A stretch of 35,852 nt of DNA from an uncultured Candidatus Saccharibacteria bacterium (GTDB lineage Bacteria; Patescibacteriota; Minisyncoccia; CAIUEV01). A model generated the notes under the pieces. That model was given only the letters and a program-made list of their open reading frames with translations, was not told where the DNA came from and made no database searches. Below, piece by piece: positions 6,551 through 33,888 of this stretch. Each line of letters opens with the position of its first letter. Position 1 is the first letter of the stretch. The DNA is taken from NCBI GenBank assembly GCA_964602125.1, contig CAZRPR010000006.1:2108-37959 (forward strand), written 5' to 3'. Both the position numbers and the translations under genes were made by a program.

Positions 6551-6553
6551 AAA

Positions 6554-6604
6554 ATTTCTTAATATGGTTTAGCGATATATTAAACCTATACCATATTAAG
6601 AAAT
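6554..6604. promoter_or_regulatory. 15-bp perfect inverted repeat directly upstream of Fic gene 1 (putative operator or RNA hairpin)
   Basis: ATTTCTTAATATGGT (6554-6568) ... ACCATATTAAGAAAT (6590-6604), 3 bp from the ATG. Confidence 0.6.
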
Positions 6605-6736
6605 AACACAAATTTTTCTTGTTTTACTCGATATAAAAATTACATAATTTTAATTATTTTCTGGTGCTCAGCTAACTAGGAACTCTTTTTTTATTTATTC
6701 TCTGAGACCTAAACTAATATTCATTTAGAAAAAAAT

Positions 6737-7789: not shown

Positions 7790-7810
7790 AATTTATTGGT
7801 TATAATTTAA

Positions 7811-7847
7811 CTATATCCAATTATATATGATTATATCCGATTGTCAA
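7811..7847 (-). promoter_or_regulatory. Consensus sigma70 promoter of Fic gene 2 overlapped by 10-bp direct repeats
   Basis: TTGACA (7842-7847) -16 bp- TATAAT (7820-7825); repeats CTATATCCAA / TTATATATGA / TTATATCCGA. Confidence 0.75.
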
Positions 7848-7873
7848 GTGCTTGGGTTAGTCAAGGACGTTAG

Positions 7874-7892
7874 CCTGCCCGCCTTTGGCGGG
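7874..7892. repeat. GC-rich REP-like mini-palindrome
   Basis: CCTG-CCCGCC-TTT-GGCGGG in an AT-rich background. Confidence 0.6.
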
Positions 7893-7980
7893 AACTATTT
7901 TGGAGAGGGTAGGGGAGTATATTCACTTTCCAGACTTTACCCGCCACAGCGTCGGATTTGGTAGCAAAAAATCTGAGCCA

Positions 7981-8013
7981 TCTTGCGTAATTCTTGCGTG
8001 ATTCTTGCACGAT
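7981..8013. repeat. Three tandem 11-bp repeats
   Basis: TCTTGCGTAAT / TCTTGCGTGAT / TCTTGCACGAT, abutting the stop codon of Fic gene 3. Confidence 0.8.
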
Positions 8014-9143
8014 TATTTATTCTTAAACAAATTCAAATATTCCTCCAATGAATAAAGTCGATTACGAGAGAAGCCAGTAATTTCTTTCAGAAGACCGAGT
8101 TTTTCAAGTGATGCTAAGAGACTATTGGCTGTATTAAAAGTGACTCCAAATTCTTTCATAATGGTTTTTGACCCGACGATCGGTTGAGAAAACAAAAACA
8201 AAAGCACCTCGCCAGAAATTTTTGCACGTCTGCCTAGCGTCAATATTTTATTTTCATAACGCTGTCTCAAATCAATTATCTTCTGGAAAGTATTCTTTCC
8301 GCTTTTAGCAGTTTCGATAATACCGCTCAGAAAAAATTTTATCCATTGTTCTAGATTATTTGACACCCTGACCATAGTCAACGCATCATAATATGCGCCT
8401 TTATTTTTTTCAAAAAAAGCAGACAGATAAAGCGTGGGTTTGTTTAAAATCTCCCTTTCAATAAATTGTAAAGATACAATTAGTCTCCCAATTCTACCAT
8501 TGCCGTCCAGAAACGGATGGATAGTTTCGAACTGATAATGGCAAATGGCAATTTTAATGAGAAGCGGAATATTAAGATTTTTGTTGTGCCAGAACTTTTC
8601 CCAATCAGCCAGAAGCCCCGGCAGTTCATCTTTGTGTGGTGGAACGAAAAAAGCATCAACAAGACCTGAGCCACCAATCCAATTTTGGCTGTTCCTGATT
8701 TCACCTGGATGCTTGTATTTTCCACGTACTCCGGAAAGCAAAGCTTTGTGAGTTTCCCGAACAAGCCTTATGGACAAAGGAAGCTTTTCCAACTGCCCGA
8801 TGGCGTACTCCATGGCCTTTATATAATTTTGAACCTCCTGCCAATCATCACGTTTTTCCAAGCCGACCTCTTCTTTGGGCAATATAGCTTCATCTACGCC
8901 AGTTTTAGTCCCTTCAATACGGCTAGAAATAGTTGCTTCCTTAACAGCATGCATTTTGATAAAAAAATTAACGTCTGGAACTAGGATGGAATAGGCATTC
9001 AACTCTCCTAAATACCTCATAGCTTCTTCCAGGAGAAGGTTAATTTTTTTGTCCTGAAAATCAAATTCATGATTTATGAAATTCGGACTGAAGCTTTTGT
9101 ATTCAAATTGTTGCTTATATTTTCCAGCAATAAATTTGTTCAT
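8013..9143 (-). CDS. Fic-domain protein (SoFic-like: N-terminal domain, Fic core, C-terminal wHTH)
   Basis: [12 protein letters not shown]; SSRIEGT; FVPP; C-terminal [18 protein letters not shown] at 9143 preferred over TTG at 9173, which lies inside the operator repeat. Confidence 0.92.
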
Positions 9144-9147
9144 CTTT

Positions 9148-9201
9148 TTGAGATATAAATTATTATATCTCAACTTTATTGATTTTTTTGAGATATGTCA
9201 A
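9148..9201 (-). promoter_or_regulatory. Promoter/operator of Fic gene 3
   Basis: TTGACA (9196-9201) -17 bp- TAAAGT (9173-9178); inverted repeat TTGAGATATAA-ATTA-TTATATCTCAA (9148-9173) plus a third TTGAGATAT half-site (9188-9196). Confidence 0.7.
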
Positions 9202-14598: not shown

Positions 14599-14787
14599 AT
14601 GGAAAAACAAGATAAAGACAAAGAATTTTACACAGCCAAAGAACTGGCGGAAAAATTAAGAGTGAATGTAATGACGATCTACCGTTATATTGATGCTAGT
14701 AAGCTGGAAGCTTATAAGATTGGGAAGGAGTTTAGAATTGAGAAAAAAGAGTTTGAGAAATTTCTTAATAAGGTAAAAACTAGATAA
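14599..14787 (+). CDS. Excisionase-family (HTH_17) DNA-binding protein
   Basis: YTAKELAEKLRVNVMTIYRYI...KLEAYKIGKEFRI. Confidence 0.88.
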   Translation: MEKQDKDKEFYTAKELAEKLRVNVMTIYRYIDASKLEAYKIGKEFRIEKKEFEKFLNKVKTR

Positions 14788-14791
14788 TTAC

Positions 14792-17302
14792 ATGAAAAAA
14801 ATTAACGAAAATAAATTCTACAAAGCACTGGAAAACATCTTTACTGGTGCTAACATTGAAGGTGAGTCTGGCTATGTCAATCTTCTTAAAATTAAGTCGA
14901 GCTATTACAAGCTAATTTTGGAACAATTCAAGAAAGATGTTGGCAAAGAAACAATAATTACCGATTCTTTCAAGGAGGAGTTTTTTGATAAACTCTATTC
15001 TTTTTTTGAAAAATATTTTTCAGAGTCTGGCAGCGTGTATTTTGTCAAAACTGCCAACTGGCAAAGAGTGTACGAGCAAGTTTACACTGACAATAAAGAT
15101 GTTGTACTGTTTTGGAAAACCCATATGCTCTATTATGTTAAGAGCGATATTTTATTTCAAAGCATTGATGTGGAAATAGAAGATGAGGAAAACAAGCAGA
15201 AATACAATTTCTTTTTTGATGTTGGAAGTCTCCAAGCCAAGCAGAATAATGAGAAAAAATCTCTTGTTTTTACTTTTCGTAAAGTCAGAGAAGAAAAAAC
15301 CAGCGAAGAAGTTTTAAACGAGAAACAAGGTAAAAAAACTTATATTTTTGACGTGGCTTATAGTGAAAGAGGGAACAAAACAAAAGTTGAAGATATTGCC
15401 AAAACGACCAAAATTCCTGAACCAATAGTTGAGAAAGCTCTAGCTACTTTCCGTAAACAGTCCGAAGTTGATTTCTTTATCAACAAAAATGCTGAGAAGT
15501 TTTTGAGCGAACAGTTGGATATGTATTTACACCAAATTTTGCTAACGGAAGAAAACAAATTTGAGCAAAAAAGACTTGATCAAATCAAAATAATAAAAAC
15601 CTTTGCCAATAAAATTACAAAATTCATCGCTCAATTTGAAGATGAACTGGTGAGAATATGGAACAAACCAAAATTTGCCTTAAATAGCAATTATGTTATT
15701 ACTATAGACAAGCTTTCCGAAGAGCTAATCAAAAAAATCGCCAAACACAAGAATTTACCCGAGCAAATCAATGAATGGCAGGAGTTGGGAATGGTTGATA
15801 AAGGCTTTGATTTTACAAAAAGAGAAGATAAACACAAACACTTACCAATCGACACTAAATACTTTAAAGACTTAGAAATAGAGATTCTTAATCTATCCGA
15901 AAATCTAGACGAAGCACTTGATGGAAGATTAATCCACTCTGAAAACTACCAAGCACTTAACACTTTACAAGAAAAATACAAAGAAAAAGTACAGTGCATC
16001 TATATCGACCCGCCATTTAATACAGGAAATGACTTTGCTTATGTCGATAAATTTCAAGATAGCACTTGGCTTAGCTTAATGAATGACAGAATAAAGACTG
16101 CTAGAAAATTCTTGAAAGATGATGGAAGTTTTTATTTACATTTAGATGATAACGCAAATGATTACGGAAAAAATATTATCAAAAAACTATTTACCGAGAT
16201 AGTAGAAATCATATTTGATACAAACTCCACAAAGGACGAAGAGGCAGATTTGTTTGGTTATAAAAGTTTTGGTAAAAATTTTATTCTAAAACATCAAACC
16301 ATATTCTTCTGTAGAAATGAAAATTATAAATTCAACAAATTGTGGAAACCAAACAGAAACACAACAGGGCTAGGAATAGGATGGCTCGATCTTATCGCAG
16401 AAAAAAAAATAGATGTAGAAAGACCACAGAAAATTGAAGACTTTAATTATTTTATTGAATGCTGGGAAAATAATAATTTAGTTAGAAAGCAAATCAACGT
16501 TAATGAAAAATTATTTCCCGTTGGTGATATATGGAATGACATATTTTCTTTTACTCAATCCGAAATGAGAGTGAGTGAAAGCTTTGCTTTCAGCTCTTCT
16601 CAAAAACCAGAAAATTTAATTAGAAGAGTTTTCCAATCCACAACTGACCAGAAAGATTACATCTTAGATTTTTTTGGGGGGCTCGGAACTTCTTTTGCTG
16701 TAGCTCACAAGCTTAATAGAAAATATTTAGGTATTGAACTAGGACAACATTTTAACGAATTTTATACTCAAGACAAAGAAAGAAAAATGGGTATTCTCGG
16801 AAGAATGAAGTGGGTATTGTACGGAGATCAAAAGATTACTGTCATTGATAAAGCGAGAAGACCTCATTTATCAAAAGACATAGATTGGCAGGGCGGTGGT
16901 TTCTTTAAATATTACTCCCTCGAGCAATACGAAGATACTCTTCGCAATATGAAATATAAAGATAGCTCTCCAAACAGTATTTTTGATAATCGCAAACCTT
17001 TCGAACAATATGCTTTTTACGCTGATCAAAAATTTGCCAATGTTTTGGAAGTGAAGAAAGACGAATTGGAAATAAATTTTGATAAGCTCTATCCAAACAT
17101 TGATTTCGCCGAAACCATTTCAAACTTGCTTGGATTACCAATAAAAAAAATCACAAAAACAAGTGTTATTTTGCAAGAAGGGGAAGAGGAAAGTAAGAAT
17201 TATAGTGAAAGAGAAATCAAGATCGATTATAAGAATATGACCAACGAAGAAAAACTGGCCTTTGTGAGACTGCTTAAACCCTTGCTTTGGTGGGGTAAAT
17301 AA
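14792..17302 (+). CDS. mod: Type III R-M system adenine methyltransferase (Mod)
   Basis: IYIDPPFNTG (motif IV) precedes LDFFGGLGT (motif I); QKPENLIRR; WQGGGFFKYY; directly upstream of res. Confidence 0.9.
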   Translation: MKKINENKFYKALENIFTGANIEGESGYVNLLKIKSSYYKLILEQFKKDVGKETIITDSFKEEFFDKLYSFFEKYFSESGSVYFVKTANWQRVYEQVYTDNKDVVLFWKTHMLYYVKSDILFQSIDVEIEDEENKQKYNFFFDVGSLQAKQNNEKKSLVFTFRKVREEKTSEEVLNEKQGKKTYIFDVAYSERGNKTKVEDIAKTTKIPEPIVEKALATFRKQSEVDFFINKNAEKFLSEQLDMYLHQILLTEENKFEQKRLDQIKIIKTFANKITKFIAQFEDELVRIWNKPKFALNSNYVITIDKLSEELIKKIAKHKNLPEQINEWQELGMVDKGFDFTKREDKHKHLPIDTKYFKDLEIEILNLSENLDEALDGRLIHSENYQALNTLQEKYKEKVQCIYIDPPFNTGNDFAYVDKFQDSTWLSLMNDRIKTARKFLKDDGSFYLHLDDNANDYGKNIIKKLFTEIVEIIFDTNSTKDEEADLFGYKSFGKNFILKHQTIFFCRNENYKFNKLWKPNRNTTGLGIGWLDLIAEKKIDVERPQKIEDFNYFIECWENNNLVRKQINVNEKLFPVGDIWNDIFSFTQSEMRVSESFAFSSSQKPENLIRRVFQSTTDQKDYILDFFGGLGTSFAVAHKLNRKYLGIELGQHFNEFYTQDKERKMGILGRMKWVLYGDQKITVIDKARRPHLSKDIDWQGGGFFKYYSLEQYEDTLRNMKYKDSSPNSIFDNRKPFEQYAFYADQKFANVLEVKKDELEINFDKLYPNIDFAETISNLLGLPIKKITKTSVILQEGEEESKNYSEREIKIDYKNMTNEEKLAFVRLLKPLLWWGK

Positions 17303-17324
17303 TTTTAGCTTGACGAGAATAACT

Positions 17325-20192
17325 ATGAAAAATACTTTAGAAAAAATAATCGAGGAAAAAAGCTATGATGACTTAGGACTATGGTGTTTGCCAAACTTGA
17401 GCAAGTTTTCCGACGCCAAAAATCTCTACGAATACCAAATAAACGCTCTTAAAAATATTACCAAAGTGTTGCATGAATATTTTGGAGAGAAAAAAGAAAA
17501 CGAAGACAGGAAAAAACATTTATTCGATTTATATAAACAGTATGGGTTGGATAATAAAAGTTTTTCCGTAAATAAATTTGCAAGCAGGACGGATAGACAA
17601 AACGATAAAATAAATAGCAGATTTTCGCTCTTCCAAAATCATTTCAAAATTTTCGGTGATGGAAATGACGAATATATTTCAGGAGCGAATTTTATGAATC
17701 GTGCCTGTTTTTGGATGGCAACAGGGAGTGGTAAAAGCCTTGTCTTAATAAAGACTATTGAACTTTTGGACTATCTCCAATCGCAAGGATTACTAGACAA
17801 AAAAGAGATCTTGCTTTTGCTCCCTCGCGAAGACCTTATAAAACAATTTGGCAAAGAAGTCGATGAGTTTAATAAGGGAAGAGAAAGACGCCTTGAACTT
17901 ATTAATTTGAAAAAGTATGAGGACGACAAACAAGGCTTTGCCTTTAATAACAGTATTAAAATCTATTATTACAGAAGTGATTTAATTAGAAACGAGAGAA
18001 AAGAGAGCATTCTTGATTATAAAAGTTATGAAAATAACGGTAATTGGTATGTATTCTTAGATGAAGCACATAGAGGAGGAAAAGAGGACTCACTAATGCA
18101 AGATTATGTTTCTATTTTAAGCAAAAATGGATTTTCTTTCAACTTCTCGGCGACTTTTACCGATAGCATAGATTATCTTACGACTTGCTATAATTTTAAC
18201 CTTGAAAAATTTATTCTAGCAGGCTATGGAAAGAATCTATATCTTAGCCAATCGTATTTTGATTTCAACAAAGAGAAAGACGATTTTAGTGAAAGAGAAA
18301 AACAAAAACAAGTAATGAAAGCTCTGATAACTTTTTCTATCGTTAAAAAAGCTAAAAAAGAAAAAACTTATCACCATCCGCTAATGATAGCCTTGGTCAA
18401 TTCGATTAACACAAACGACGCCGATTTACTCATCCTTTTTAATAAGCTAGAAGAAATCGCTATCGGAAAAACTGATGAGCAATTATTTAAAGAGGCTAAA
18501 GAAGATATTTTAATTGATCTCCAAAACCATATCTCTTATGTTTTCGGAGAAGAAAAACTTTATTTTGAAAAGGATATTTTGAGAGAGCTGAAGCCTAAAG
18601 ACATTTTCGAAATGGTTTTTAATGCTTCAGATCAAGGCAAAATAGAGCTCATCGAAGGAGAAAAAGGCAAAGAAATCATTTTAAAATCAGAAAACAGCGA
18701 AAAGCCTTTTGCTCTTATTAAAATTGGAGATGCAGGTAAATTTAAAAAAGAACAGTTAGGAGATGGCTATGCTGTTGTGAAAGGTTTTTACAACAAGAAA
18801 TTCTTTGAAGAGATTAACGACAGTGAAGATATAAATTTGCTCTTAGGAAGTAGGAGTTTCTATGAAGGTTGGGATAGCAATCGTCCCAATGTTATTAGCA
18901 TGATAAATATAGGGAAGCAAGACGCTAAAAAGTTCGTTTTACAAGGAATTGGAAGAGGAATTAGAATCGAACCATTCAAAGGCGAGAGAAAGAGACTGCC
19001 TCAAAATCATGCAGATAAAAATATTTTACTTGAAACATTGTTCGTTTTTGCAACTGATAAAAATGCCGTTAAGGCAATTATAGAAACCGTGGAAAACGAA
19101 AAAAACACCGACGAAGTAGAAATATCACTTTTTGAAAACAAGAAAAAACCTTTTGATTTACTTATTCCTGTGTATGAAGATGAGAAAACGAGAGGAAAAA
19201 TTGCCAAATTTAATATAGAAGCGGAAAGTTTGGAGCGTTTTAAAAACTATCTCGAATCTTTTGACACAAACACCTTGCTTGTTAAAACTGGCATACCTCA
19301 AAAAGACCTCGAATTTTTGCTAAAAGAAATAAAAAACAATGCTTTTTTTCAAATCAAGGAAGAGAATATCTATAGCGATATGGACTTGCTTTTGCAAACA
19401 ATGACAAGCCATGTTTCTGTTAAAAATAAATTTGTGTCGGGAATTAAAGAGGTTGCCGATGAAATAATACACTTTAAACACATAAAAGTTATTAATTTTA
19501 GTGATTCTGATCTGCAAGTTTTTAAAGATGAGATTGAAAAGGTCGGCAATTATGAAGAGATTAAAGAATCGGACATAGACGAGCTTTTCGATAAAGGAAA
19601 AATCAGTAGAGAAGAATATAAAAGAAGAATTAAGGCTGTCGATAGAAATAAATCGGAATCAAGCTTCAAAGATCTTAAAATAAAAAAGATTGCCGAACAT
19701 TATTATTTACCCATTATCTATTCAGAAAAGGAAAAAATAGAATATATCAAGCATGTTATTGAAGTGACCAGTGAAGTAACTTTTATTAAAAACTTAGAAA
19801 AACATCTTGAGTCAAACAAACCTGACTGTGATTGGATGTTTAGTAAGCTCGATCAGAATCTAGATTCCTTTCATCTTCCATATTTTTACAAAAAAGAAAA
19901 TATTTATCGGAAATTTTTTCCAGACTTCATCTTCTGGATTAAAAAAGACAATAATTATAGAATCATTTTCATAGACCCAAAAGGTACCACTAACGCAGAT
20001 TATCAAAACAAAGTGGATGAATTTGAAAAATTATTTTCAGAAAATGGCAAAGCCAAAGTCTTCAAATATAAGAATTTCAAAATAACTTTCGATTTAAAAC
20101 TTGTAGCTCAAGACGTAAACAATGTAAGTGAAAAATATGAAAAATATTGGCTTGGAAATAAAGATTTTGGATTTTTAAAATATAATTTATGA
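17325..20192 (+). CDS. res: Type III R-M system restriction subunit (Res)
   Basis: MATGSGKS, LDEAH, FSAT, EGWD, QGIGRGIR helicase motifs; C-terminal FFPDF...FIDPKG PD-(D/E)xK nuclease. Confidence 0.9.
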   Translation: MKNTLEKIIEEKSYDDLGLWCLPNLSKFSDAKNLYEYQINALKNITKVLHEYFGEKKENEDRKKHLFDLYKQYGLDNKSFSVNKFASRTDRQNDKINSRFSLFQNHFKIFGDGNDEYISGANFMNRACFWMATGSGKSLVLIKTIELLDYLQSQGLLDKKEILLLLPREDLIKQFGKEVDEFNKGRERRLELINLKKYEDDKQGFAFNNSIKIYYYRSDLIRNERKESILDYKSYENNGNWYVFLDEAHRGGKEDSLMQDYVSILSKNGFSFNFSATFTDSIDYLTTCYNFNLEKFILAGYGKNLYLSQSYFDFNKEKDDFSEREKQKQVMKALITFSIVKKAKKEKTYHHPLMIALVNSINTNDADLLILFNKLEEIAIGKTDEQLFKEAKEDILIDLQNHISYVFGEEKLYFEKDILRELKPKDIFEMVFNASDQGKIELIEGEKGKEIILKSENSEKPFALIKIGDAGKFKKEQLGDGYAVVKGFYNKKFFEEINDSEDINLLLGSRSFYEGWDSNRPNVISMINIGKQDAKKFVLQGIGRGIRIEPFKGERKRLPQNHADKNILLETLFVFATDKNAVKAIIETVENEKNTDEVEISLFENKKKPFDLLIPVYEDEKTRGKIAKFNIEAESLERFKNYLESFDTNTLLVKTGIPQKDLEFLLKEIKNNAFFQIKEENIYSDMDLLLQTMTSHVSVKNKFVSGIKEVADEIIHFKHIKVINFSDSDLQVFKDEIEKVGNYEEIKESDIDELFDKGKISREEYKRRIKAVDRNKSESSFKDLKIKKIAEHYYLPIIYSEKEKIEYIKHVIEVTSEVTFIKNLEKHLESNKPDCDWMFSKLDQNLDSFHLPYFYKKENIYRKFFPDFIFWIKKDNNYRIIFIDPKGTTNADYQNKVDEFEKLFSENGKAKVFKYKNFKITFDLKLVAQDVNNVSEKYEKYWLGNKDFGFLKYNL

Positions 20193-21664
20193 AAGCAATA
20201 ATCCTCGCCAGAGTATCAACCGAAGAGCAAAGGGAAGCAGGGAACTCTCTACCCGCTCAAGTTGAGCGTTTGAAGAGCTATTGCAAAAGAAAAGGCTTTG
20301 AGATTGTAAAAACTTTTAGCTTCGATGAAAGTGCCTACAAGACCAAGCGGGACGAGTTTGATAAGATTCTCGAGCATCTTAAAGGCTCAAAAGAGAAAAT
20401 CGCAGTTTGCTTTGATAAAGTGGACAGATTATCAAGAAATGTTTTCGATAAAAGGGTTTCGTTGCTCTACGAAAAAGCTATTGCCGATGAAATTGAATTA
20501 CATTTTGCTTCAGATGGTCAGGTTATAAGCAACAACATGTCGGCCGTTGAGAAATTTCAATTCGGAATGAGTCTTGGTCTGGCTAAATATTATTCCGATG
20601 CTATCAGCGACAACGTAAAGAGAGCTTACGAGCAGAAATTACGCAATGGCGAATGGATTGGGAAAGCTCCGCTGGGATATAAAAACATCGATCTAGAGAA
20701 TGATAAGAAATCAATCGTGGTCGACGAGAGCAGGGCATTTTTAATAAAAAAACTTTTTGAATTATATGCCAGCGGTAAATATTCAATGAAAACACTAACA
20801 AAAGAAATGGCAAAGCAAGGGCTGAAAGGCACAAAAACTGGGGAGCCGATAGCCACCAGCCAAATGGAAAAAATTCTGAAAAATCCCTTTTATTATGGAA
20901 CAATGCGAGTTAAGAAACAATTATATCCTCACAACTACGACCCTATAATTTCTCGCTATCTATTTAATAAAGTGCAAGAAGTCATTAACAGCTATAACCG
21001 ACAAAGATTCAAAAGAACCAACAAACCTTATATTTTTCGAGGATTACTCAAGTGTTCTGATTGCGGATATACCGTTAGCCCTTACACCAAAATAAAGAAA
21101 AACGTCCTTGTTTATTATCGATGCACCAACTACGGTGGTAATTGTAAGAATGTTACCAACATCAAAGAAAAGGAGCTTGTCGATCAAATAGCGGAAGTGT
21201 TTAAGAGTATAAAGCTGGAAGACTCAGTCGTGGATAAATTGAAAGACGAACTGAGAAGAACTCACGAATCGGAAAAAAAGTTTTACGAACAAAGCTTGAG
21301 AACTATTAAAAATAAGCTCGAGAATATCGATAGAAGACTGAAAGTCATGTATGACGATAGATTGGACGGACGTATTACTACGGAAGACTATGACAAGAAA
21401 GTGAAAGAATACGATTCAGAGAAACAAGATTTAATGATTCAGTACGAAGAACATAATAAAGCCGACATAAACTTCTATATTACGGCCAGCAGAGTGCTAG
21501 ACCTGTCCAACAGAGCTTGGGAAATCTTCCAAAGTTCTGAACCAGAAGAAAAAACTCAACTTCTCAAATTTGTACTTAAGAACTTAGAGCTTAGAGGCAG
21601 AAAGCTTGTCTATGAGCTAAAAAATCCCTTTCAAGGGATAGTCGAATACCAAAAAACTGGAAAT

Positions 21665-21679
<15 letters not shown>
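20189..21679 (+). CDS. Large serine recombinase (integrase); 3' end runs into tRNA-Gln
   Basis: LARVSTEEQ catalytic Ser, DRLSRN, APLGY, ILKNPFYYG recombinase domain, CSDCG...YYRC zinc ribbon, coiled coil; stop codon lies inside the tRNA. Confidence 0.95.
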
Positions 21680-21739
<60 letters not shown>

Positions 21740-25584: not shown

Positions 25585-25669
25585 GGAGAGGTCGCATAGT
25601 GGTCTAGTGCGTCTGACTTGAAATCAGATGTGTCGCAAGGCACCCAGGGTTCGAATCCCTGCCTCTCCG
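25585..25669 (+). tRNA. tRNA-Ser (TGA), CCA not encoded
   Basis: GGAGAGG/CCTCTCC acceptor stem, TCTGA-CTTGAAA-TCAGA anticodon arm, long variable arm, GTTCGAA T-loop. Confidence 0.96.
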
Positions 25670-25803
25670 CATCTACAATTTTGTATCGTGCAGACTCACA
25701 CGCCTGCAGTATTGAAGCTATGTTTGGGCAATTTTGGTTACAAATGAAAAAGGCAATAATGGCAATAATTGTTGTCTTTTTTCTTTTCCCGGCTTATTTA
25801 AGT

Positions 25804-27132
25804 TTAAGCCACTAGTTTTAGTTTCTTATCTTTGTAAATTATCTTCGATCTCAAATTTCCCAGCAATTCCCTTTTTTCCGAAACCGCTCCTTCTTTAAGT
25901 AGATATTTAGCGTAATTTCGAATATTTGTTTCTTTACTAGTCTTTATCTCAAAACTTTCTCCCATAACCGATCTTTGAAAAATATTGAATCTGGTAATCT
26001 CATCTTCCAGTTTTTGCCTCATTCCCAGCTCGTTAATATCCATTTTATCGATAATTTTTAGCAGTTCCGTAATTAAATCTTCCTCCCGAATATACTTGTT
26101 TTTGCAATGTCGATCCCTAGCCCTTGAGCAGGAATAATAGATGTACTTGGCATGAGTGCCGTCTTTAAGCAGTTTGTATTTTTCTTCGGCTGATATACCC
26201 GATCCGCAATGGCCGCAGGTGAAGAGTTTAGTAAAGGAAAATTCATGGTTTTGCCTTACGATTTTGTCTCTTTTCAACCACGCTTGAGCTTTTTCGAAGA
26301 GTTCCTGGGTAATAATGGGTTCATGTTTTCCGGTATACCAGTTACCACCCTTGATTGGATATTCAAATATTCCGTAATAAAAGGGGTTATCCAATACTCG
26401 ATAGACACCGGCCAGTGTCAGTGGTTTGTTACCCCTGGTGTAGAAATTGAGTTCATACCTGAGCCAGTGGTAAATCTTTCTGCCTGAATAATGTTCATGG
26501 GCTACTTTTTCAAATATTTTTCTGATGGCCGGCGCTCTTTGGGGATCTTGGATAACTTGGCATTTTTTGTCCATATGTTTTTGATTGAGGTATCCTAGCG
26601 GAGCGACAGTCGGCCATAACCCCATTTCACATCTAGCTCGGAGTCCTCTTTTTACGTTAATTCCTCGATTATCGTTTTCTAATTTAGCCTGAGAACCCAA
26701 TATCATCAGAAGGAACTTCTCATTAGGAGAATTAGTGAATCTTTGCCCGTAAGTCCGGATTTCTTTTAATGCTCCGCTATCCATAAGGTCAACTATTTTC
26801 CCCAGATCTCCGGCGTTTCTTGATATACGATCCGGTGCCCAGGTGAGGATCCCGTTGAATTTCTCTTGCTGGATTTCTTCCACAATCTCGTTAAAGACTG
26901 GTCTTTTTCCGGTTTCTTTGGCTGAATGGGATTCCCGCTTGATATTAACGATATTTAGGTTTTCCCGCTCAGCTAGATTCAGCATTTCTTTGATCTGCGA
27001 ATCGATTGATAGTATCTGTCTTTCCTCAGATTCAGAGCTTTTCCGTGCGTAAAGGCAGTAATTTACTACTTCTTGTTTTACCGGTTGATAGCTGGGAGCT
27101 ATATTTTGGATCTGTTGAGTAGCGACATTCAT
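25804..27132 (-). CDS. Large serine recombinase
   Basis: YARKSSES, DRISRN, APLGY, VLDNPFYYG, HEPII, CGHCG...YYSC zinc ribbon. Confidence 0.94.
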   Translation of the reverse strand: MNVATQQIQNIAPSYQPVKQEVVNYCLYARKSSESEERQILSIDSQIKEMLNLAERENLNIVNIKRESHSAKETGKRPVFNEIVEEIQQEKFNGILTWAPDRISRNAGDLGKIVDLMDSGALKEIRTYGQRFTNSPNEKFLLMILGSQAKLENDNRGINVKRGLRARCEMGLWPTVAPLGYLNQKHMDKKCQVIQDPQRAPAIRKIFEKVAHEHYSGRKIYHWLRYELNFYTRGNKPLTLAGVYRVLDNPFYYGIFEYPIKGGNWYTGKHEPIITQELFEKAQAWLKRDKIVRQNHEFSFTKLFTCGHCGSGISAEEKYKLLKDGTHAKYIYYSCSRARDRHCKNKYIREEDLITELLKIIDKMDINELGMRQKLEDEITRFNIFQRSVMGESFEIKTSKETNIRNYAKYLLKEGAVSEKRELLGNLRSKIIYKDKKLKLVA

Positions 27133-27327
27133 GTGTTTTTTTGTTAATTATTATCTATCTTTAACACAAGGAATGACGCAACCCTTAAGTTTGTCAAGGC
27201 CAAAAGCCCGCTATTCTCAATATCCTCTTGAACATTTGCTAAAATGCTAATCTTAAAATTACCCTAAAAAACCATCCCTAAAGATTTCCCTGATTCTAAT
27301 TCCTATACTATATTATAGCTACAATTT

Positions 27328-27496
27328 GGCCGCCTAAACTTACGTCTTCGGGCGTAGGCATGGCATCAAAACCTCGTTGATAGAAACGGTCTCCTGTAGA
27401 CCGGCGCTCATCAACGAGGTCTATGTCCGAAAGGATATAGGACGATTCCGAAAGGTTTCGTCGCCGGCTCAGGGGACCTTTTTTGTTTTCTGAGTC
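27328..27496 (+). ncRNA. Unassigned structured RNA (leader or ncRNA)
   Basis: Four hairpins: one cUUCGg-capped with a CCUAAA/CAUGG receptor, one 11-bp perfect stem, two GAAA-capped; G-U pairs and tetraloops indicate the + strand. Confidence 0.7.
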
Positions 27497-27641
27497 AAGA
27501 ATATTAACAAATATTTAATCAGGAAACAGATGGAGAAAAAAATTCATCGAGCCAATGTAAGGAAAGTTTCGTACCCCATCATCAAGCTTTGTCTCACGCT
27601 ACTGAATATTCTGTAGCTTTTTTTATTTTTAAATCATTTAA

Positions 27642-29036
27642 ATGGAAAAATCGGCCAATCAAAACCAGAATTCGCCGAATCAAACTAAAAAGAAATGGTA
27701 CAAAAAAATAAGATACTGGATCCTCATTATATTTGTTATGTTCCTAGGGCTATGCGTGATAGGTTATATCGGATCAAGAGGCGTACCAATGCTAAGATCA
27801 ATGGGTTTATCGAAAGAATTTCGTCAGTCAAACCTAAATGTTCCTGGTTACAATGTTGGTGCTAATGAGAATGTAAGGGTTTACCAAAATAGCAATTTTC
27901 TGCAAGAAGTAAAAGCAAATGATAAAGGTGAGTTTCAAGTGGCATTAAATCTTACCGAGGGAGAGAATATTGTATATATGGAAATACTCAAAGACGGTAA
28001 GACAAAAAAAAGTATTGATTATAAATTTGTTTATTATCCCGAAAAACAAGCTGGGATAAAGTCAGAAAATGAACAATCTTCTGAATCTAATCAACCGGAT
28101 CAAAAACAAACCGAAGTAAGGAATCCATTCGAAAAAGACAATAAAAATGGAAATAACATCAACGCAAAAGAAAATAAAACAGAACCCGCAAAAAAAGAAG
28201 CTATTTTATCCCTTAGAGATAAATCAGGAAAAATACTTGTACAAGATATAAATATTTGGAATGGAGCTGGAACAGGTGGAAACATCATGGCCATAGGAAC
28301 TGTGCCTGATGGTACTAAAGTTGAAGTCTTGGAAATTAAGACTGTTGAAGGAATTGTTTATTATCGCATCAAGTCATCGGTGGGCAAGGTCTCTATTTTA
28401 CCTACCACTTTTGCCGCCAGAAAAAAAGCGATGGAGGAGCGGCCCGAGAGCGAATGGAATATTGATGCTGATCCAAGCTTTCCAGTTGAAGGATGGGTAA
28501 CTGGCAGGTCTATTCTAAATGAATCTAATCAACCGGATCAAAAACAAACCGAAGTAAAGAATCCGTTCGAAACAGCTGATGAAATAAAAGATAATGTTGA
28601 TACAAAAAAAGAAGAAACTTCGGTAGATAAAATCAATTCCATTGTTAAAAATATTGGAGACAAGTTAGAAGTAAGTGTATGGGATATAAAACAGAATTTT
28701 GCCAAGAATAACACACCACCCCCTTACGAAATAATAGTTAATGCTGGCCCAGGGTACATTGCTGATTGCTATTATGCCAAACAAACAGGGTATGAAATAA
28801 TGAAAAAACTATACACGGATGATTTAGTGAAAGATAAAATTGCACGAGTGAAATTTACTTCTTGGGGGCAATTAAAAACAAGTGTTGGATCAGAGGATGG
28901 TTTAAAAACGCCATGGAATATGAATGGTCCAACTAATTACTGGACTGTTATGCTTAATTTGAAAGAGAGTCAATATGAAAAAGGTCCACTCAATCAAAGG
29001 ACTTGGGGTGAATATATAGACAGCGGTTGTTATTAG
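27642..29036 (+). CDS. Membrane-anchored modular surface protein (Ig-like, SH3b-like and unknown C-terminal domains)
   Basis: KKWYKK + TM helix; ANDKGEFQVALNLTEGEN Ig-like segment; IGTVPDGTKVEVLE...YYRI...EGWV SH3b-like segment; duplicated linker. Confidence 0.75.
   Translation: MEKSANQNQNSPNQTKKKWYKKIRYWILIIFVMFLGLCVIGYIGSRGVPMLRSMGLSKEFRQSNLNVPGYNVGANENVRVYQNSNFLQEVKANDKGEFQVALNLTEGENIVYMEILKDGKTKKSIDYKFVYYPEKQAGIKSENEQSSESNQPDQKQTEVRNPFEKDNKNGNNINAKENKTEPAKKEAILSLRDKSGKILVQDINIWNGAGTGGNIMAIGTVPDGTKVEVLEIKTVEGIVYYRIKSSVGKVSILPTTFAARKKAMEERPESEWNIDADPSFPVEGWVTGRSILNESNQPDQKQTEVKNPFETADEIKDNVDTKKEETSVDKINSIVKNIGDKLEVSVWDIKQNFAKNNTPPPYEIIVNAGPGYIADCYYAKQTGYEIMKKLYTDDLVKDKIARVKFTSWGQLKTSVGSEDGLKTPWNMNGPTNYWTVMLNLKESQYEKGPLNQRTWGEYIDSGCY
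28082..28572 (+). repeat. 53-bp intragenic direct repeat (2 mismatches)
   Basis: 28082-28134 and 28520-28572, 438 bp apart, encoding ESNQPDQKQTEV(R/K)NPFE. Confidence 0.92.
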
Positions 29037-29082
29037 AGCTTATTGAGATAACTTTTTGATAAATAATAATTAAACTAAATAT

Positions 29083-29406
29083 ATGAAAAAAGAAGAAGTC
29101 CCTAATCAGGTTAAGAAATGTCCTTATTGCGCGGAAAAAATAAAAACAGAAGCCATCGTTTGCAAACATTGTGGAAGAGATCTTAGCTCTTACATGAAAC
29201 AAGATGGACCTGAAATTAATATAAAGAACAATCCTTCATATACTTCTTTAACAATTCTTTCTTTTATTCTACCTATTATAGGAATTATCTTGGGCATTGT
29301 ATACCTTACAAAACCTGATAGGCCGGCTAAGAAGTTCGGGGAACATCTTTTGGCAATAGGGATCTTGGGTTGGATAGTATTATCAATCGTTTTTTCTATA
29401 TTTTAA
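29083..29406 (+). CDS. Zinc-ribbon membrane protein
   Basis: CPYCAE...CKHCG followed by two TM helices. Confidence 0.8.
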
Positions 29407-29423
29407 TTTTTCACTAAAAAGAA

Positions 29424-29903
29424 ATGCAATCTGAAATAAAACAAGGAATTAAGGCGGTAGGTTGTGGAATACCTCTCTCGATAATTGTTCTTATCATTAT
29501 CCTTATTTTTATAAGGGAATTTAATTCAAATAACGATGTTGAGAACAATGTAGACAGTGGTTTCAAGAGATCGGATTTTAGTAATAGTGGAATAAATAAA
29601 GTTAATAATGATTCTACAAGTAAAAAAGCAAAAATAGATATCCTTAGCCATAGTGTTAAAAAAGTTTACGGAAACACTAGTATAGTAGGAGAAGTTCAAA
29701 ATAATGGAAGTTCTTCCGTTTCTTTTGTAAAAGTTACGGCAACATTTTATGACACGAATGGTAAGGTAGTAGACACTTCTTTTACTTATGCGGGTGATAC
29801 TGCCAATACTCCCTTGAGTCCCGGAAAGAAGTCCCCATTTGAGATAGGTTTGATAGGAAATACGCCCTTTAACACTTACAAACTCGATGTAGACTGGAAT
29901 TAA
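29424..29903 (+). CDS. FxLYD-domain exported protein
   Basis: N-terminal TM; IVGEVQNNG...VTATFYDTNGKVVD...LSPGKKSPFEI. Confidence 0.8.
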   Translation: MQSEIKQGIKAVGCGIPLSIIVLIIILIFIREFNSNNDVENNVDSGFKRSDFSNSGINKVNNDSTSKKAKIDILSHSVKKVYGNTSIVGEVQNNGSSSVSFVKVTATFYDTNGKVVDTSFTYAGDTANTPLSPGKKSPFEIGLIGNTPFNTYKLDVDWN

Positions 29904-29946: not shown

Positions 29947-31389
29947 TTATTGAGCTGTAATCAATACCCCAGCCACAGGCTTTTTGGCTCTTTTCTGAAT
30001 CTCGGTAAGATTAATTGAAAAAGCGTCAGCCAAATCATCATACTTTTCGATTCCAAAATTCACCAGCTGGTCAATCAAAATTTCTGTTCCTTTTTCGGGG
30101 AAGAACACTTTCCCTGATTGAACCAAAGCTGAAACCATTGAGAGCCGGGCTCTTTTGTCCTGGCCATGGACCATCACTCCTTCGGTTTTAAACCCTTTAT
30201 TTCTGAGCATCTCAACCATTACTCCTTGGTATCCCACATCCTCCACGAAGATATGGGGTAAATATCCCGAGTTTCGTAACCTCTCTGCAATATTAATAAT
30301 CTTCTCCTGGGTTTGGAGAGACGTTAGCCTTTTATTTATCGGACTAGGTTCAATGTATATTTGCATTTCATCGCCGTAACCATAAACGTGAGCGACAACG
30401 ATAGCCGTGTAATTAGCTGTGTCTTTCAGAGAAATGGCCAAGTCAACACCAATAGCGGTAAAGCGGTATCCCTCTCTCGGGTTGGGAAGCTTGTCGTATT
30501 TTTTAATCCAATCTCTTTGAATAACTCGATCATTGTCAGGCAAGATTGTTAAAAGGTATTCTCGATACCAGGCTTGCTCGCTTCCAACTTTGCTTTTGGC
30601 TAATTCAATGGCTTCTTTGTCGGGAAATTTTCCCAGCCACAAACACTTGCCATTTTCATCCAGCAGAGGATATTCTCTATAAATACCGTTAAAGCTTTCA
30701 TCCTTGATATCTCTTTCCAATCTCATCAGCGTTGAATCCTCATGGAGAAGGTTCCCAACAATAATTATCTTAGTATCTTTGTCTCCGGCCGGAATCACTT
30801 CCCCGGTCAGCCAATTGTGAGTTTTGTCTCTTCCTTCTTTGTTTTTAATCGAAGCCAAATCTTCAATATCGTCACAGATTATGAGATCTGGTCGATGTTC
30901 TCCGTGTCTGATTCCCCTAATACTTTGTTCGCTTGAAGCTGCCGTTATTTTTGCCCCGTACTTCGAAAGGATAATCGAGCTTGCTCCCCAGTCTCCCTTA
31001 CCATGGCGGAACGGCTCAAAATCTTTCCTTAGCAGGTCATTCCCCTCCAACTCCATCTTGATGTGCTTTAGCATCAGCCTTGCTTGCTCTTGGTTCTGGC
31101 TAAGGATTAGAACGAATTTACACCTGCCGCTGAGTACTGCCCAAATCGGATAGGATAAAGTAAAAATTGTCGACTTAGCTGAATTCCTAAAAGCTACTAT
31201 CACCGCTCTCCTAATCGCATCGTCTTCTGTTATGGAAATCATTTCCTTTTGAAATGGAGCCGTCTTATGTTTCACGTAATGGGAAAAATAGGTGTGGAAA
31301 AACCATAAGTGGCTTTTTGTAACCGTTTTCACTCTTACGTTTTGGTCCTTTATTAAAAGACTAGGAATGCTTTTTTTTGCTGGTGTCAT
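29947..31389 (-). CDS. Phage terminase large subunit
   Basis: Walker A variant AFRNSAKST, IRG..RPDLIICDDIED, RNase H-like IGVDLA ... DKRAR ... YDDLADA. Confidence 0.88.
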   Translation of the reverse strand: MTPAKKSIPSLLIKDQNVRVKTVTKSHLWFFHTYFSHYVKHKTAPFQKEMISITEDDAIRRAVIVAFRNSAKSTIFTLSYPIWAVLSGRCKFVLILSQNQEQARLMLKHIKMELEGNDLLRKDFEPFRHGKGDWGASSIILSKYGAKITAASSEQSIRGIRHGEHRPDLIICDDIEDLASIKNKEGRDKTHNWLTGEVIPAGDKDTKIIIVGNLLHEDSTLMRLERDIKDESFNGIYREYPLLDENGKCLWLGKFPDKEAIELAKSKVGSEQAWYREYLLTILPDNDRVIQRDWIKKYDKLPNPREGYRFTAIGVDLAISLKDTANYTAIVVAHVYGYGDEMQIYIEPSPINKRLTSLQTQEKIINIAERLRNSGYLPHIFVEDVGYQGVMVEMLRNKGFKTEGVMVHGQDKRARLSMVSALVQSGKVFFPEKGTEILIDQLVNFGIEKYDDLADAFSINLTEIQKRAKKPVAGVLITAQ

Positions 31390-31798
31390 TACGTTTTACA
31401 GTTAATCCCGCAAGAAGAAGGGCCCTCCGGACCGCTTCTTCTTGCTCATTAGTTAATTCTCTTGATTCATTACTTTTCTCTGTAACTTCCACTCTGGTCT
31501 TGTAGGCTTCATGCCGATGCTTGAGCCAGAACTTACTCGCTGACATATCTTTGTTTCCGATAGCCGAAATAATGCTGTATTCGGCAATGTCGTTTATTGT
31601 CTTTACTCCTTCATGAAGAGCCTGGTCGGCTTTTTCGGCAAACTGCTGGTCTTCTTTTCTCCAGCGGTAATAAGTAGCTCTGCCAACATCAATCTTTTTG
31701 CAGGCGGCCTGGACGATCGGAACTTCTCGAAGCTTTTTCAAAAGCATCTTTTTAAGAATCGCCGTTCTATCATCGGTTAAATTATTCTTCTGTTGCAT
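31361..31798 (-). CDS. Putative terminase small subunit (HTH)
   Basis: IVQAACKKIDVGRATYYRWRKEDQQF HTH and ASKFWLK helix; directly upstream of and overlapping TerL. Confidence 0.7.
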   Translation of the reverse strand: MQQKNNLTDDRTAILKKMLLKKLREVPIVQAACKKIDVGRATYYRWRKEDQQFAEKADQALHEGVKTINDIAEYSIISAIGNKDMSASKFWLKHRHEAYKTRVEVTEKSNESRELTNEQEEAVRRALLLAGLTVKRNDTSKKKHS

Positions 31799-32573
31799 GA
31801 TCTTCTATTACTGGATTAATAACTCTCTTTGCTTTCCTGCCAGTGAGTTTCTCAAACCTTCTAATAATCACTCGGCAATACTCAGGATCGATTTCCACCA
31901 TAAAACATTTTCTCTTGGTCTGCTCGCAGGCTAAAAGGGTTTGTCCTGACCCTCCAAATCCATCGTAAACTGCATCGCCAACTTTTGTGCTGTTAAGAAT
32001 TAATCTACGAAGCAGTCCCACAGGTTTCATGGTAGGGTGCTCCTTGCTTTTACTGGGTTTAGGACAAACCAAAACACTTTTGTCTTTGGATTTTCGAAAT
32101 TTATGTTTACCCACCCAGCCGTAAGCGATCAGCTCGTGCTGGGGAAGATAATCCATTCGGCCGATGACCGCATGAGTTTTCACCCAAATGAGTAACTGGG
32201 CGAATTTACAGCCAGCTTTTTTCATCCCTTCCCGCAAGGCAAAAAGCATCTTGTCGGAGTTAAAGATGTAAAAAGTGTTGCTGCTTGCTAAATATGGCTT
32301 AATCGCCTCAATCCAATCTGCAGTAAACTTTTGATATTCTTCCTCGCTTTGCACCTGGTCGTTTTGAATAATTTTTCTATCTCTTTTTTCTTTAAAGAAT
32401 CCTTTTTTCCCTTCCACATAAGCTACGCCGTATGGCATATCATTCAAAACTGCGGTGATCTCATTTTCTCCGAGCAGATTTTTCACCAGTTCCGAATCTC
32501 GCGAATCGCCGCAAGCCAAAAAATGGTCTCCGAGTTGGAAAATATCTCCCGAATTAATTAAATCTTTTTCCAT
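31782..32573 (-). CDS. N6/N4 DNA methyltransferase (DMPY variant)
   Basis: LGDHFLACGDS, NDMPYGV, HPTMKPV, YDGFGGSG, EIDPEYC. Confidence 0.88.
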   Translation of the reverse strand: MEKDLINSGDIFQLGDHFLACGDSRDSELVKNLLGENEITAVLNDMPYGVAYVEGKKGFFKEKRDRKIIQNDQVQSEEEYQKFTADWIEAIKPYLASSNTFYIFNSDKMLFALREGMKKAGCKFAQLLIWVKTHAVIGRMDYLPQHELIAYGWVGKHKFRKSKDKSVLVCPKPSKSKEHPTMKPVGLLRRLILNSTKVGDAVYDGFGGSGQTLLACEQTKRKCFMVEIDPEYCRVIIRRFEKLTGRKAKRVINPVIEDHATEE

Positions 32574-32583
32574 TGCATTAAAT

Positions 32584-33888
32584 TTAGTTGATTAATTGAG
32601 CACTCTTGCCTGTTAAAAGCTCATATCTCTTGACTATTAAATCACAGAACACTGGATCTATCTCAACCGTAAAGCAGACTCTCTGCATCTGCTCGCAGGC
32701 GACCATTGTTGAACCTGATCCTCCGAACAGATCAATCACAATGTCTCCCTGCTTAGTGCATCTCCTGAGCGGTTTTTCGTGAAGGGTCGGCGGTTTCTGG
32801 GTGGGATGTTCGTATTCCTGCGCTGGCAGTCTTTTTACCAACCAAATGTCAAACAAATCCAGAATGTCATCAATCGTTCGGTTGCCGACGCTTATTTCTT
32901 TGTTAAGAATCTCGCCTAGATTATTAATATTCGGCGCCAAATAGGGATTCCCTCTTACGGCGTAAACACAAGGCTCATAAGCTTTATTAAAAGCCGTCTG
33001 CGGAGTGACATTAAAGTTATTTTTAATCCACAAACACACTCGCTTGTTATTAAGCCCAGCTTTGCGAAACATCCCCTGCACCAGACCGACATAATTCTGA
33101 TCGCACCAATAAAAGACGTGGCAGTCTTTTTGAGCTGAATTTAGGCCGTTTGTGAGTGTTTTTGTTAAAAAAGAGGCGTATTCCTTTCGACTCAGGTTAT
33201 CTTTTGTCTTCCCGCCGTACTTTCCCTTGTTGCCAATTCCTTTGTTGTAATCAAGGGAAATGTTATATATCGGGTCGCAATAAAGCATTGTAGCTTTCTC
33301 TTTCCCCACTAGTTTTGAGATGACTGCCTGGTCGGTGGAATCACCGCAAACGAGTTTGTGTCTGCCTAATTGATATAAATCTCCCAACTTGATTTTGGGA
33401 ATTTTAATCTCGGAAATTTCTTTTTCCAGATCGAATCCGTCATCTTCCGTTTCTAAGGCGTCATCCCAAATTTTTCCTAAATCAGAATCATCAAATCCCA
33501 CGTCCAGAAGCAGTTCGATATCAAAAGACTTGAGGATCTCAAGATCCCATTCTCCCGTATTTCTATTGAGCCTTAAATTGAGTTCTTTTTCTCTTTTGAT
33601 GTCAGGAATGTTGAGATAGACGACAGGTATTTTCGTAAATCCCATTTTCTTTGCCATCGCCAATCGGAAGTGGCCGCCGATAACTATGTTTTCACGCCCC
33701 TTAGCACAATTGACCACGCATGGGTCAACTAGCCCGAACCTCTTAATACTCTCTTTTAATTTTTCTTCCGCCTGCTCATTCCATTTTCTGGGATTATAGG
33801 TGCTTGGTTTCAAAGAGCTGATTTTTACATACTCTACTTTTAGTTTCTTATCGCCTATCATTAGGCCTTTTTTACCGTCTTTAGACAT
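32584..33888 (-). CDS. ParB-like N-terminal domain fused to N6/N4 DNA methyltransferase (DPIY variant)
   Basis: LKPSTYNPR...ESIKRFG...IGGHFR ParB domain; CDPIYNI, HPTQKP, DLFGGSGST. Confidence 0.88.
   Translation of the reverse strand: MSKDGKKGLMIGDKKLKVEYVKISSLKPSTYNPRKWNEQAEEKLKESIKRFGLVDPCVVNCAKGRENIVIGGHFRLAMAKKMGFTKIPVVYLNIPDIKREKELNLRLNRNTGEWDLEILKSFDIELLLDVGFDDSDLGKIWDDALETEDDGFDLEKEISEIKIPKIKLGDLYQLGRHKLVCGDSTDQAVISKLVGKEKATMLYCDPIYNISLDYNKGIGNKGKYGGKTKDNLSRKEYASFLTKTLTNGLNSAQKDCHVFYWCDQNYVGLVQGMFRKAGLNNKRVCLWIKNNFNVTPQTAFNKAYEPCVYAVRGNPYLAPNINNLGEILNKEISVGNRTIDDILDLFDIWLVKRLPAQEYEHPTQKPPTLHEKPLRRCTKQGDIVIDLFGGSGSTMVACEQMQRVCFTVEIDPVFCDLIVKRYELLTGKSAQLIN

Follow-up and report, generated by a model that had tools for sequence, protein, structure and literature searches.

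A LOOT RNA ahead of prophage cargo genes in a Candidatus Saccharibacteria genome: a candidate cis-acting transcription-attenuator leader

The 35,852-nt stretch of DNA analysed here (hereafter the window; contig CAZRPR010000006.1 of the uncultured Candidatus Saccharibacteria assembly GCA_964602125.1) carries a LOOT RNA between the integrase and the packaging genes of a prophage, and we consider it rather probable, with no great confidence, that this RNA serves as a cis-acting transcription-attenuator leader of the prophage cargo genes. Searching the window against Rfam with cmscan gave a full-length match to LOOT RNA (RF03000) at 27331–27459 (+), which spans model positions 1–121 of 121 and scores 68.4 bits against a gathering score of 46.4 (E = 5.5e-11); the only other matches at gathering score were two tRNAs. 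An extended, family-based LOOT model (R1) matched the window at 27319–27497 with 91.3 bits, and the copy in the window is the only one in the 910-kb, 63-contig assembly. The RNA is an ordinary member of an already catalogued family. An earlier note, made from the letters alone, had called it unassigned and a novel riboswitch, leader or non-coding RNA on a mobile element, and had itself proposed the cmscan search that, with this match above the gathering score, overturned the claim of novelty; the placing of a leader or non-coding RNA on a mobile element survived, and the riboswitch reading, in its small-molecule sense, found no support.

LOOT was reportedly discovered in marine metagenomes and taken there for a likely trans-acting sRNA, and its name is said to stand for 'lots of outstanding tetraloops'. 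The source of the motif is the survey of Weinberg et al. 2017 (PMC5737381), in whose main text, as far as it is searchable, the word LOOT appears solely in a reference. In the Rfam 14 paper (PMC7779021) LOOT is labelled a 'metagenomic-based RNA' in a figure legend, a table of the Rfam 15 paper lists two added covarying pairs for it, one sentence of the CaCoFold paper gives it about 43 base pairs in six helices, and its Rfam type is 'Gene; sRNA'. A search of the full-text literature returned the 2017 survey, the Rfam papers and the structure-prediction paper and found no functional study of LOOT; papers that can be searched in full text do not give its host, context or function. Since 2017 LOOT has stood as a strongly covarying orphan RNA known from metagenomes alone, and the functional picture developed below, that of a leader with a terminator in its tail, is new relative to the literature found.

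Read directly, the sequence contains all four hairpins and the U-run where the earlier note had placed them: P1 (27332–27364), with a UUCG loop and the internal loop CCUAAAC/GCAUGG; the long hairpin P2 (27371–27420), with an apical hairpin at 27387–27403 and the inner strands CGGUCU/AGACCG; P3 (27421–27440), with a GAAA loop that is invariant in the LOOT family; and P4 (27441–27462), whose loop is GAAA here and GNRA in the family. The hairpins were thus correctly seen but the extent given for the unit was too short, as the –10-like hexamer at 27309–27314, the ACAAU at 27321–27325 and the tail at 27462–27478 belong to it as well. The minimum free energy fold of the window sequence yields P1–P4, and the segment 27328–27496 folds at –82.7 kcal/mol against –49.8 ± 3.9 kcal/mol in 200 dinucleotide shuffles (z = –8.44, with 0 of 200 as good). 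Four consecutive hairpins were recovered by single-sequence folding in 70 of 72 family copies. The GC content is 0.50 in the Rfam match against 0.37 across window positions 27001–28000, in agreement with the description of a GC-rich region within AT-rich DNA.

The GAAA tetraloop/11-nt receptor module occurs in group I/II introns, RNase P and the c-di-GMP-I riboswitch, and its signature had been noticed in P1. Nine of the 11 receptor positions are identical in the window, and to that extent the signature is real: C1:G11, C2:G10, U3, the A4–A5 platform, A8 and U9 are all found in LOOT P1. The canonical receptor CCUAAG/UAUGG, with its G6:U7 wobble under the AA platform, is absent from the window, which has CCUAAA/CAUGG; the wobble is replaced by A:C in 43 of 70 LOOT copies (the window included) and by C:U in 17. 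The receptor halves read CCUAAAC/GCAUGG in 43 of the 70 and CCUAACC/GUAUGG in 12, while the P3 loop is GAAA in 70 of 70 and the P4 loop GNRA in 65 of 70. An A:C wobble can mimic G:U. In the 11-nt receptor the wobble under the platform matters for docking, and a change from G:U to G:C is reported to cost 4.33 kcal/mol (Geary et al. 2008, PMC2275092). Docking of the P3 GAAA loop into the receptor-like loop of P1 is a plausible prediction from this pattern. Apart from the receptor, LOOT contains no multi-helix junction or conserved internal loop, and no conserved single-stranded seed is visible in the family, where the conserved bases are explained by the tetraloops, the receptor and the linkers.

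The Rfam model ends at P4, and every LOOT copy then has a segment complementary to apical P2, followed by a U-rich run. In the window this 3' tail (27462–27478, +; covered by model R1) forms a duplex of –31.5 kcal/mol with apical P2, its core pairing joining CAGGGGACC at 27470–27478 with GGUCUCCUG at 27388–27396 (+), and the terminator-like U-run U6GU4 (27479–27489, +; U6 at 27479–27484, then G, then U4) comes directly after the helix. RNAalifold, applied to a sequence-only MAFFT alignment of 70 LOOT copies, itself picked the long-range tail–P2 helix; both partners vary in 8 of its 8 pairs, and pairing is kept in 96.8% of cells. For the whole LOOT structure 95.1% of cells are paired, compared with 67.7% in shuffles and 32–42% when the structure is slid along the alignment; the alignment (A1) misaligns the basal and apical stems of P2, and these two stems, excluded from the covariation counts, rest on the Rfam consensus line and on single-sequence folds. 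The tail pairs with its own P2 at a median of –24.65 kcal/mol and with the P2 of other copies at –13.1 kcal/mol; its own P2 ranks first as a partner in 34 of 70 copies and no lower than sixth in 64 of 70. Set against LOOT whose tail is left unpaired, the fold with tail–P2 pairing is the more stable one in 57 of 70 copies (–67.0 against –57.1 kcal/mol in the window), and by a column-anchored count the 10 nt that follow the tail helix hold six or more T in 66 of 69.

In the apical P2 hairpin the tail spans the whole 5' strand and the loop and reaches over most of the 3' strand, so that the apical hairpin and the tail–P2 pairing are mutually exclusive. Two pairs of the tail helix are U:G in 38 and in 45 of the 70 copies, respectively, and the presence of many U:G pairs indicates that the pairing is at the RNA level and strand-specific. 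An intrinsic terminator is expected to have a stable helix immediately before a U-tract. The covarying tail helix and the U-run together look like a long-range terminator, though the helix is an unusual one, long-range or pseudoknotted, and a scan of 27100–27750 for simple hairpin-plus-T terminators scored nothing on the plus strand. The one terminator-like site that the scanner reported there is on the minus strand (27403–27387), where UUUCUAUCAA comes after the apical P2 hairpin.

A –10-like hexamer, TATATT (27309–27314, +), which we predict to be part of a promoter, lies 6 nt upstream of the conserved ACAAU (27321–27325, +), the putative transcription start or RNA 5' end. This is a family pattern: 51 of 72 LOOT copies have an ACAA at 9–28 nt before the receptor CUAA, and TAnnnT occurs 4–9 nt upstream of that ACAA in 44 of the 51, against 5 of 51 at a shifted control offset. 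A consensus scan of window 27100–27750 found no canonical –35/–10 promoter. The hexamer before the conserved ACAA, together with the co-orientation of the downstream gene described below, leads us to conclude that LOOT opens a transcription unit. The five sequencing runs listed as holding window 26800–28200 are DNA, and none is recorded as RNA. The 5' ACAA (27321–27324) is complementary over four bases to UUGU (27483–27486) within the U-run, a UUGU that is conserved family-wide, as UUUGUGUUU or UUUUUUGU in most LOOT copies; such a pairing could close the RNA ends or compete with termination, and both elements are near-invariant, which makes covariation uninformative.

Of the 84 LOOT matches that scored above cut-off in the samples of relatives, class and phylum, 72 were taken for the study of gene context (the 12 lowest-scoring phylum-sample matches and one sub-threshold match were left out). 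The first downstream open reading frame (ORF) is co-oriented with LOOT in 69 of 71 copies and the upstream ORF in 35 of 71, counts in which related genomes are not independent observations. In an independent set of 72 LOOT copies the downstream ORF was co-oriented in 56 of 63 evaluable cases and the upstream one in 38 of 69, and in viral contigs the downstream ORF was co-oriented in 7 of 7. The median gap from the end of the Rfam match to the downstream ORF was 57 nt in the 71 evaluable copies, ORFs having been called by a crude longest-ORF rule that makes gap lengths approximate.

In the window three plus-strand cargo genes follow LOOT. The first (27642–29036) encodes 464 aa with one N-terminal hydrophobic segment (residues 21–48) and no Pfam or PHROG family; the second (29083–29406) encodes 107 aa with the Pfam domain Zn_ribbon_3 and two hydrophobic segments (51–79 and 85–107); and the third (29424–29903) encodes 159 aa with an N-terminal hydrophobic segment (7–36) and a weak DUF3426 match (24.9 bits, below the 27.7 cut-off). 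Each protein having one or more such segments, the earlier description of three exported-protein genes is a fair one, in the sense of exported or membrane-anchored. Relatives of the second gene recur downstream of other LOOT copies (a BLAST cluster of 10). Across the copies, the downstream genes have no common function and most have no Pfam family; those with an assignment include methylases, restriction enzymes, SNase, DUF4352, zinc-ribbon membrane proteins, Ltp lipoprotein, KAP NTPase and glycosyltransferase. Pfam annotation of the context copies revealed no shared pathway or transport function, and BLAST clustering of the neighbours revealed no conserved protein family or partner gene.

A second relation to the downstream gene was seen in part of the family. 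A copy of the 5' strand of P2 ends 0–5 nt before an ATG in 16 of 70 LOOT copies, where cross-locus controls lead one to expect 0.7 (below the 1st percentile of those controls), and in these copies the 3' strand of P2 could mask the ribosome-binding region. No such copy was found before the start codon in the window (–6.0 kcal/mol, rank 63 of 70).

The first long ORF of the window, cargo gene 1, starts 152 nt after the U-run. The gap contains a 28-codon small ORF (27530–27616, +; MEKKIHRANV...) preceded by AGGAAACAG, and a hairpin GCUAC/GUAGC (27598–27617, +) that holds the stop of the small ORF and is followed by a T-run at 27618–27630; together these could be a second attenuator or a remnant. 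With a small ORF and a second hairpin and T-run in this space, a separate promoter for the cargo genes is possible in the window.

The surroundings of the RNA are those of a prophage or prophage remnant beside a tRNA-Ser gene, in a very small genome of candidate-phyla-radiation type. The feature order is tRNA-Ser (UGA; 25585–25670, +; ARAGORN and Rfam tRNA), the likely integration site; a minus-strand large serine recombinase, the prophage integrase, divergent from LOOT (25804–27132; Pfam Resolvase, Recombinase and Zn_ribbon_recom; phrog_95, E = 1e-63); LOOT; the three cargo genes; and a convergent minus-strand prophage block (29947–33888; Pfam and PHROGs, phrog_38 with E = 9e-79 among them) made up of the terminase large (29947–31389) and small (31361–31798) subunits, a DNA methyltransferase (31782–32573) and a ParB-methyltransferase (32584–33888). 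DNA similarity to a genome of the same genus (G002) runs through the ATPase gene and the tRNA-Ser and stops at 25671, with nothing shared beyond. An integrase beside a tRNA, packaging genes and a loss of similarity at the tRNA end are the marks of prophage cargo, and it is this break at the tRNA-Ser 3' end, with the co-oriented next gene in 69 of 71 copies and the position of the RNA between the integrase and the terminase block, that upholds the earlier placing on a mobile element. The last 22 bases of the tRNA-Ser occur once in the window, where no second attachment site was found, and elsewhere in the assembly two near-matches to the tRNA-Ser end were found, both on other contigs; the far prophage end was not found.

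LOOT travels with serine-recombinase prophages. Among the 41 LOOT copies of the class sample, 21 have a PF07508 recombinase within 7 kb, where chance would give about 3–4% (a rough estimate from match density). Such a recombinase occurs in 26 of the 29 genomes with LOOT and in 49 of the 122 others, a contrast that kinship overstates. In a genome of the same family (G003:C27:841-1888) a serine recombinase is some 700 bp away from a tRNA-Ser gene resembling that of the window, which suggests that related elements use the same tRNA-Ser integration site. The window itself holds a second integrated-looking element, without LOOT, at 14599–21739, with an excisionase-like HTH gene (14599–14787), a type III restriction-modification pair (mod 14792–17302, res 17310–20192) and a second large serine integrase (20189–21679) whose end overlaps tRNA-Gln (21665–21739, –). 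At 5609–9173 (–) three Fic/DOC-domain genes of 313, 350 and 386 aa stand in a row.

Matches above cut-off were found in 10 of 61 relatives, 29 of 151 genomes of the same class and 30 of 151 of the same phylum, and in none of 14 control genomes; the matching genomes are all of 0.5–1.3 Mb and hold up to four copies each. A pattern scan of named-species records returned at least 119 stretches. Of the 80 listed, 76 proved to hold LOOT by the extended model; as labelled, 54 of these 76 bear Patescibacteria/CPR names, 10 generic names and 12 other MAG labels. Among the matches listed, these 12 labels from outside Patescibacteria (L227, L177, L253, L232 and six 'uncultured Bdellovibrionales' among them) take in a complete genome of 853 kb under the label TM6 and short contigs given as archaea; such records may be mislabelled or misbinned MAGs or may reflect real spread beyond the phylum. 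In IMG/VR, LOOT was confirmed in 10 of 43 pattern-matched loci, and the four annotated ones carry either a serine integrase, terminases and ParB-methylase like those of the window or genes for portal, major head, tail and lysin. In the phage contig L163 (3673–3846) LOOT heads a portal–major head–tail–lysin (amidase) operon, and a second, weaker LOOT match (37.2 bits) lies at 446–577, 3 kb upstream of the first. Reverse-transcriptase genes (phrog_1423 / RVT_1) adjoin LOOT in three loci (L171, L135 and L111).

The attenuator reading starts from the observed family membership, fold, tail covariation, promoter position, gene orientation and prophage context, and adds to them termination, control of read-through and docking as its predicted steps. 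LOOT would be the promoter-proximal leader of a three-gene membrane-protein cassette (27642–29903). Transcription would start about 10 nt before P1, hairpins P1–P4 would fold co-transcriptionally, and the invariant GAAA of P3 would probably dock in the receptor-like loop of P1. The emerging tail (27462–27478) would then be able to invade the apical hairpin of P2, and the tail–P2 helix, formed directly before U6GU4, would act as an intrinsic terminator, with most transcripts stopping at about 27489, some 170 nt long. Anything that keeps the tail off P2 would let the polymerase read through into the cargo genes, and in about a quarter of LOOT copies the 3' strand of P2 may pair with the P2-5'-strand copy before the start codon as an added translational gate. 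Against this reading stand the great diversity of the downstream genes (restriction-modification, nucleases, membrane or surface proteins, one phage portal/head operon), with no common signal evident, and the absence of the P2-strand copy in the window and in some three quarters of LOOT copies.

The main competitor holds that LOOT is a free-standing gene for a trans-acting prophage sRNA, with its own promoter and terminator and with other RNAs or proteins as its targets, and that the next gene is incidental. The Rfam typing as 'Gene; sRNA' agrees with this, as do the RNA's own –10 box, terminator-like tail and U-run, the presence of up to four copies per genome, the lack of a conserved downstream protein family and, in the window, the 152-nt gap with its further hairpin and T-run before the long ORF. 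A trans-acting sRNA would bear no fixed relation to its neighbouring gene, however, and here LOOT shares its strand with the next gene in 69 of 71 copies and with the previous one in 35 of 71, a downstream bias replicated in 56 of 63. The median gap from the U-run to the ORF is about 25 nt, which in most LOOT loci leaves no room for a separate promoter, and the covarying P2-strand copy at the ribosome-binding region of 16 of 70 copies is sensible only on a joint transcript of LOOT and gene. With no conserved single-stranded seed visible in LOOT either, we judge the sRNA explanation unlikely, if the most serious of the alternatives. That the inverted repeats act instead as DNA, as a recombination (att) site, a packaging (pac) site or an origin of the element, is suggested by the integrase and terminase genes close by; this possibility was considered and is disfavoured by pairs kept through G:U wobbles on one strand only, by strand-specific GAAA/GNRA loops and the receptor motif, and by the promoter upstream, and we give it hardly any credence.

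Two further proposals concern what would control the terminator, and are special cases of the cis-attenuator reading. By the first, which is no true alternative to that reading, LOOT may be a phage antitermination site, at which a phage or host protein on the GNRA hairpins, or the RNA itself on the polymerase, allows passage of the built-in terminator. The prophage location, the two adjacent conserved GNRA hairpins, the succession of promoter, structured RNA of about 170 nt and putative terminator ahead of genes, and the position of LOOT at the head of the late operon of L163 all suit this idea, but no conserved partner gene was found among the LOOT neighbours, many copies precede restriction-modification or surface-protein genes that lysogens should express, and some LOOT loci have no phage genes nearby; as a specific mechanism it appears improbable. 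Still more doubtful is a riboswitch in which tetraloop and receptor form a pocket for a small-molecule or ionic ligand, Mg2+ or a cyclic dinucleotide for instance, whose binding chooses between P2 and the tail–P2 terminator. GAAA/receptor pairs occur in several riboswitch classes, and the aptamer-like compact fold with such a pair, the two conserved pairings that exclude each other ahead of a U-run and the anti-SD-like arrangement in 16 of 70 copies would fit. The Rfam scan, however, gave zero matches to riboswitch families at gathering score, the downstream genes are heterogeneous and share no pathway, the receptor is the one conserved internal loop of a fold that lacks multi-helix junctions, and the switching helix is variable in sequence, and it is on the first two of these grounds that the earlier riboswitch claim is judged unsupported.

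Within the preferred reading, that of a cis-acting attenuator leader, a broader proposal can be put forward more tentatively, and we lean slightly towards doubt about it: LOOT may be a portable cassette of promoter plus conditional terminator, and not an sRNA, that meters any cargo in prophages and integrative elements of Patescibacteria, its tetraloop–receptor fold gating the invasion by the tail and, in some copies, the ribosome-binding site. If this is true, the cargo metered would range over defence systems, nucleases, surface proteins and even a late structural operon, and LOOT would be the first class of regulatory RNA that is specific to the mobile elements of these ultrasmall bacteria; its terminator, long-range or a pseudoknot, would be an unusual one. 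The placing of LOOT in Patescibacteria prophages, where it would head cargo operons with a terminator switch, makes the proposal one that purified polymerase and a template of some 400 bp could test, and gives a first handle on gene regulation in the mobile elements of almost uncultivable bacteria.

Compared with the LOOT family as modelled in Rfam, the RNA in the window has the same four-hairpin order, the receptor-like loop in P1, GAAA on P3 and GNRA on P4, so that the core is without difference; the 5' ACAAU after the –10 box, the 3' tail and the U-run all lie outside the 121-position model, and the gene context seen here argues for a leader in place of the sRNA of the Rfam typing. Phage leaders that gate a terminator are exemplified by lambda nut/boxB with N, the lambda pR'–tR' 6S RNA with Q, and HK022 put. 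Like these, LOOT has a promoter, a short structured RNA and a putative terminator before phage genes, hairpins of GNRA type and a prophage setting; unlike them, it also precedes cargo genes that are not of phage type, and the likeness is one of arrangement in which homology is not expected. With riboswitch and attenuator platforms LOOT shares two exclusive pairings on the same strand followed by a U-run, and in 16 of 70 copies the 5' strand of P2, its 3' strand and the copy before the start codon stand in a three-way relation like that of anti-SD sequestration. It departs from those platforms in having neither a coherent regulon nor a conserved pocket, and in a putative terminator helix that either spans a long range, with P3 and P4 inside it, or forms a pseudoknot with basal P2.
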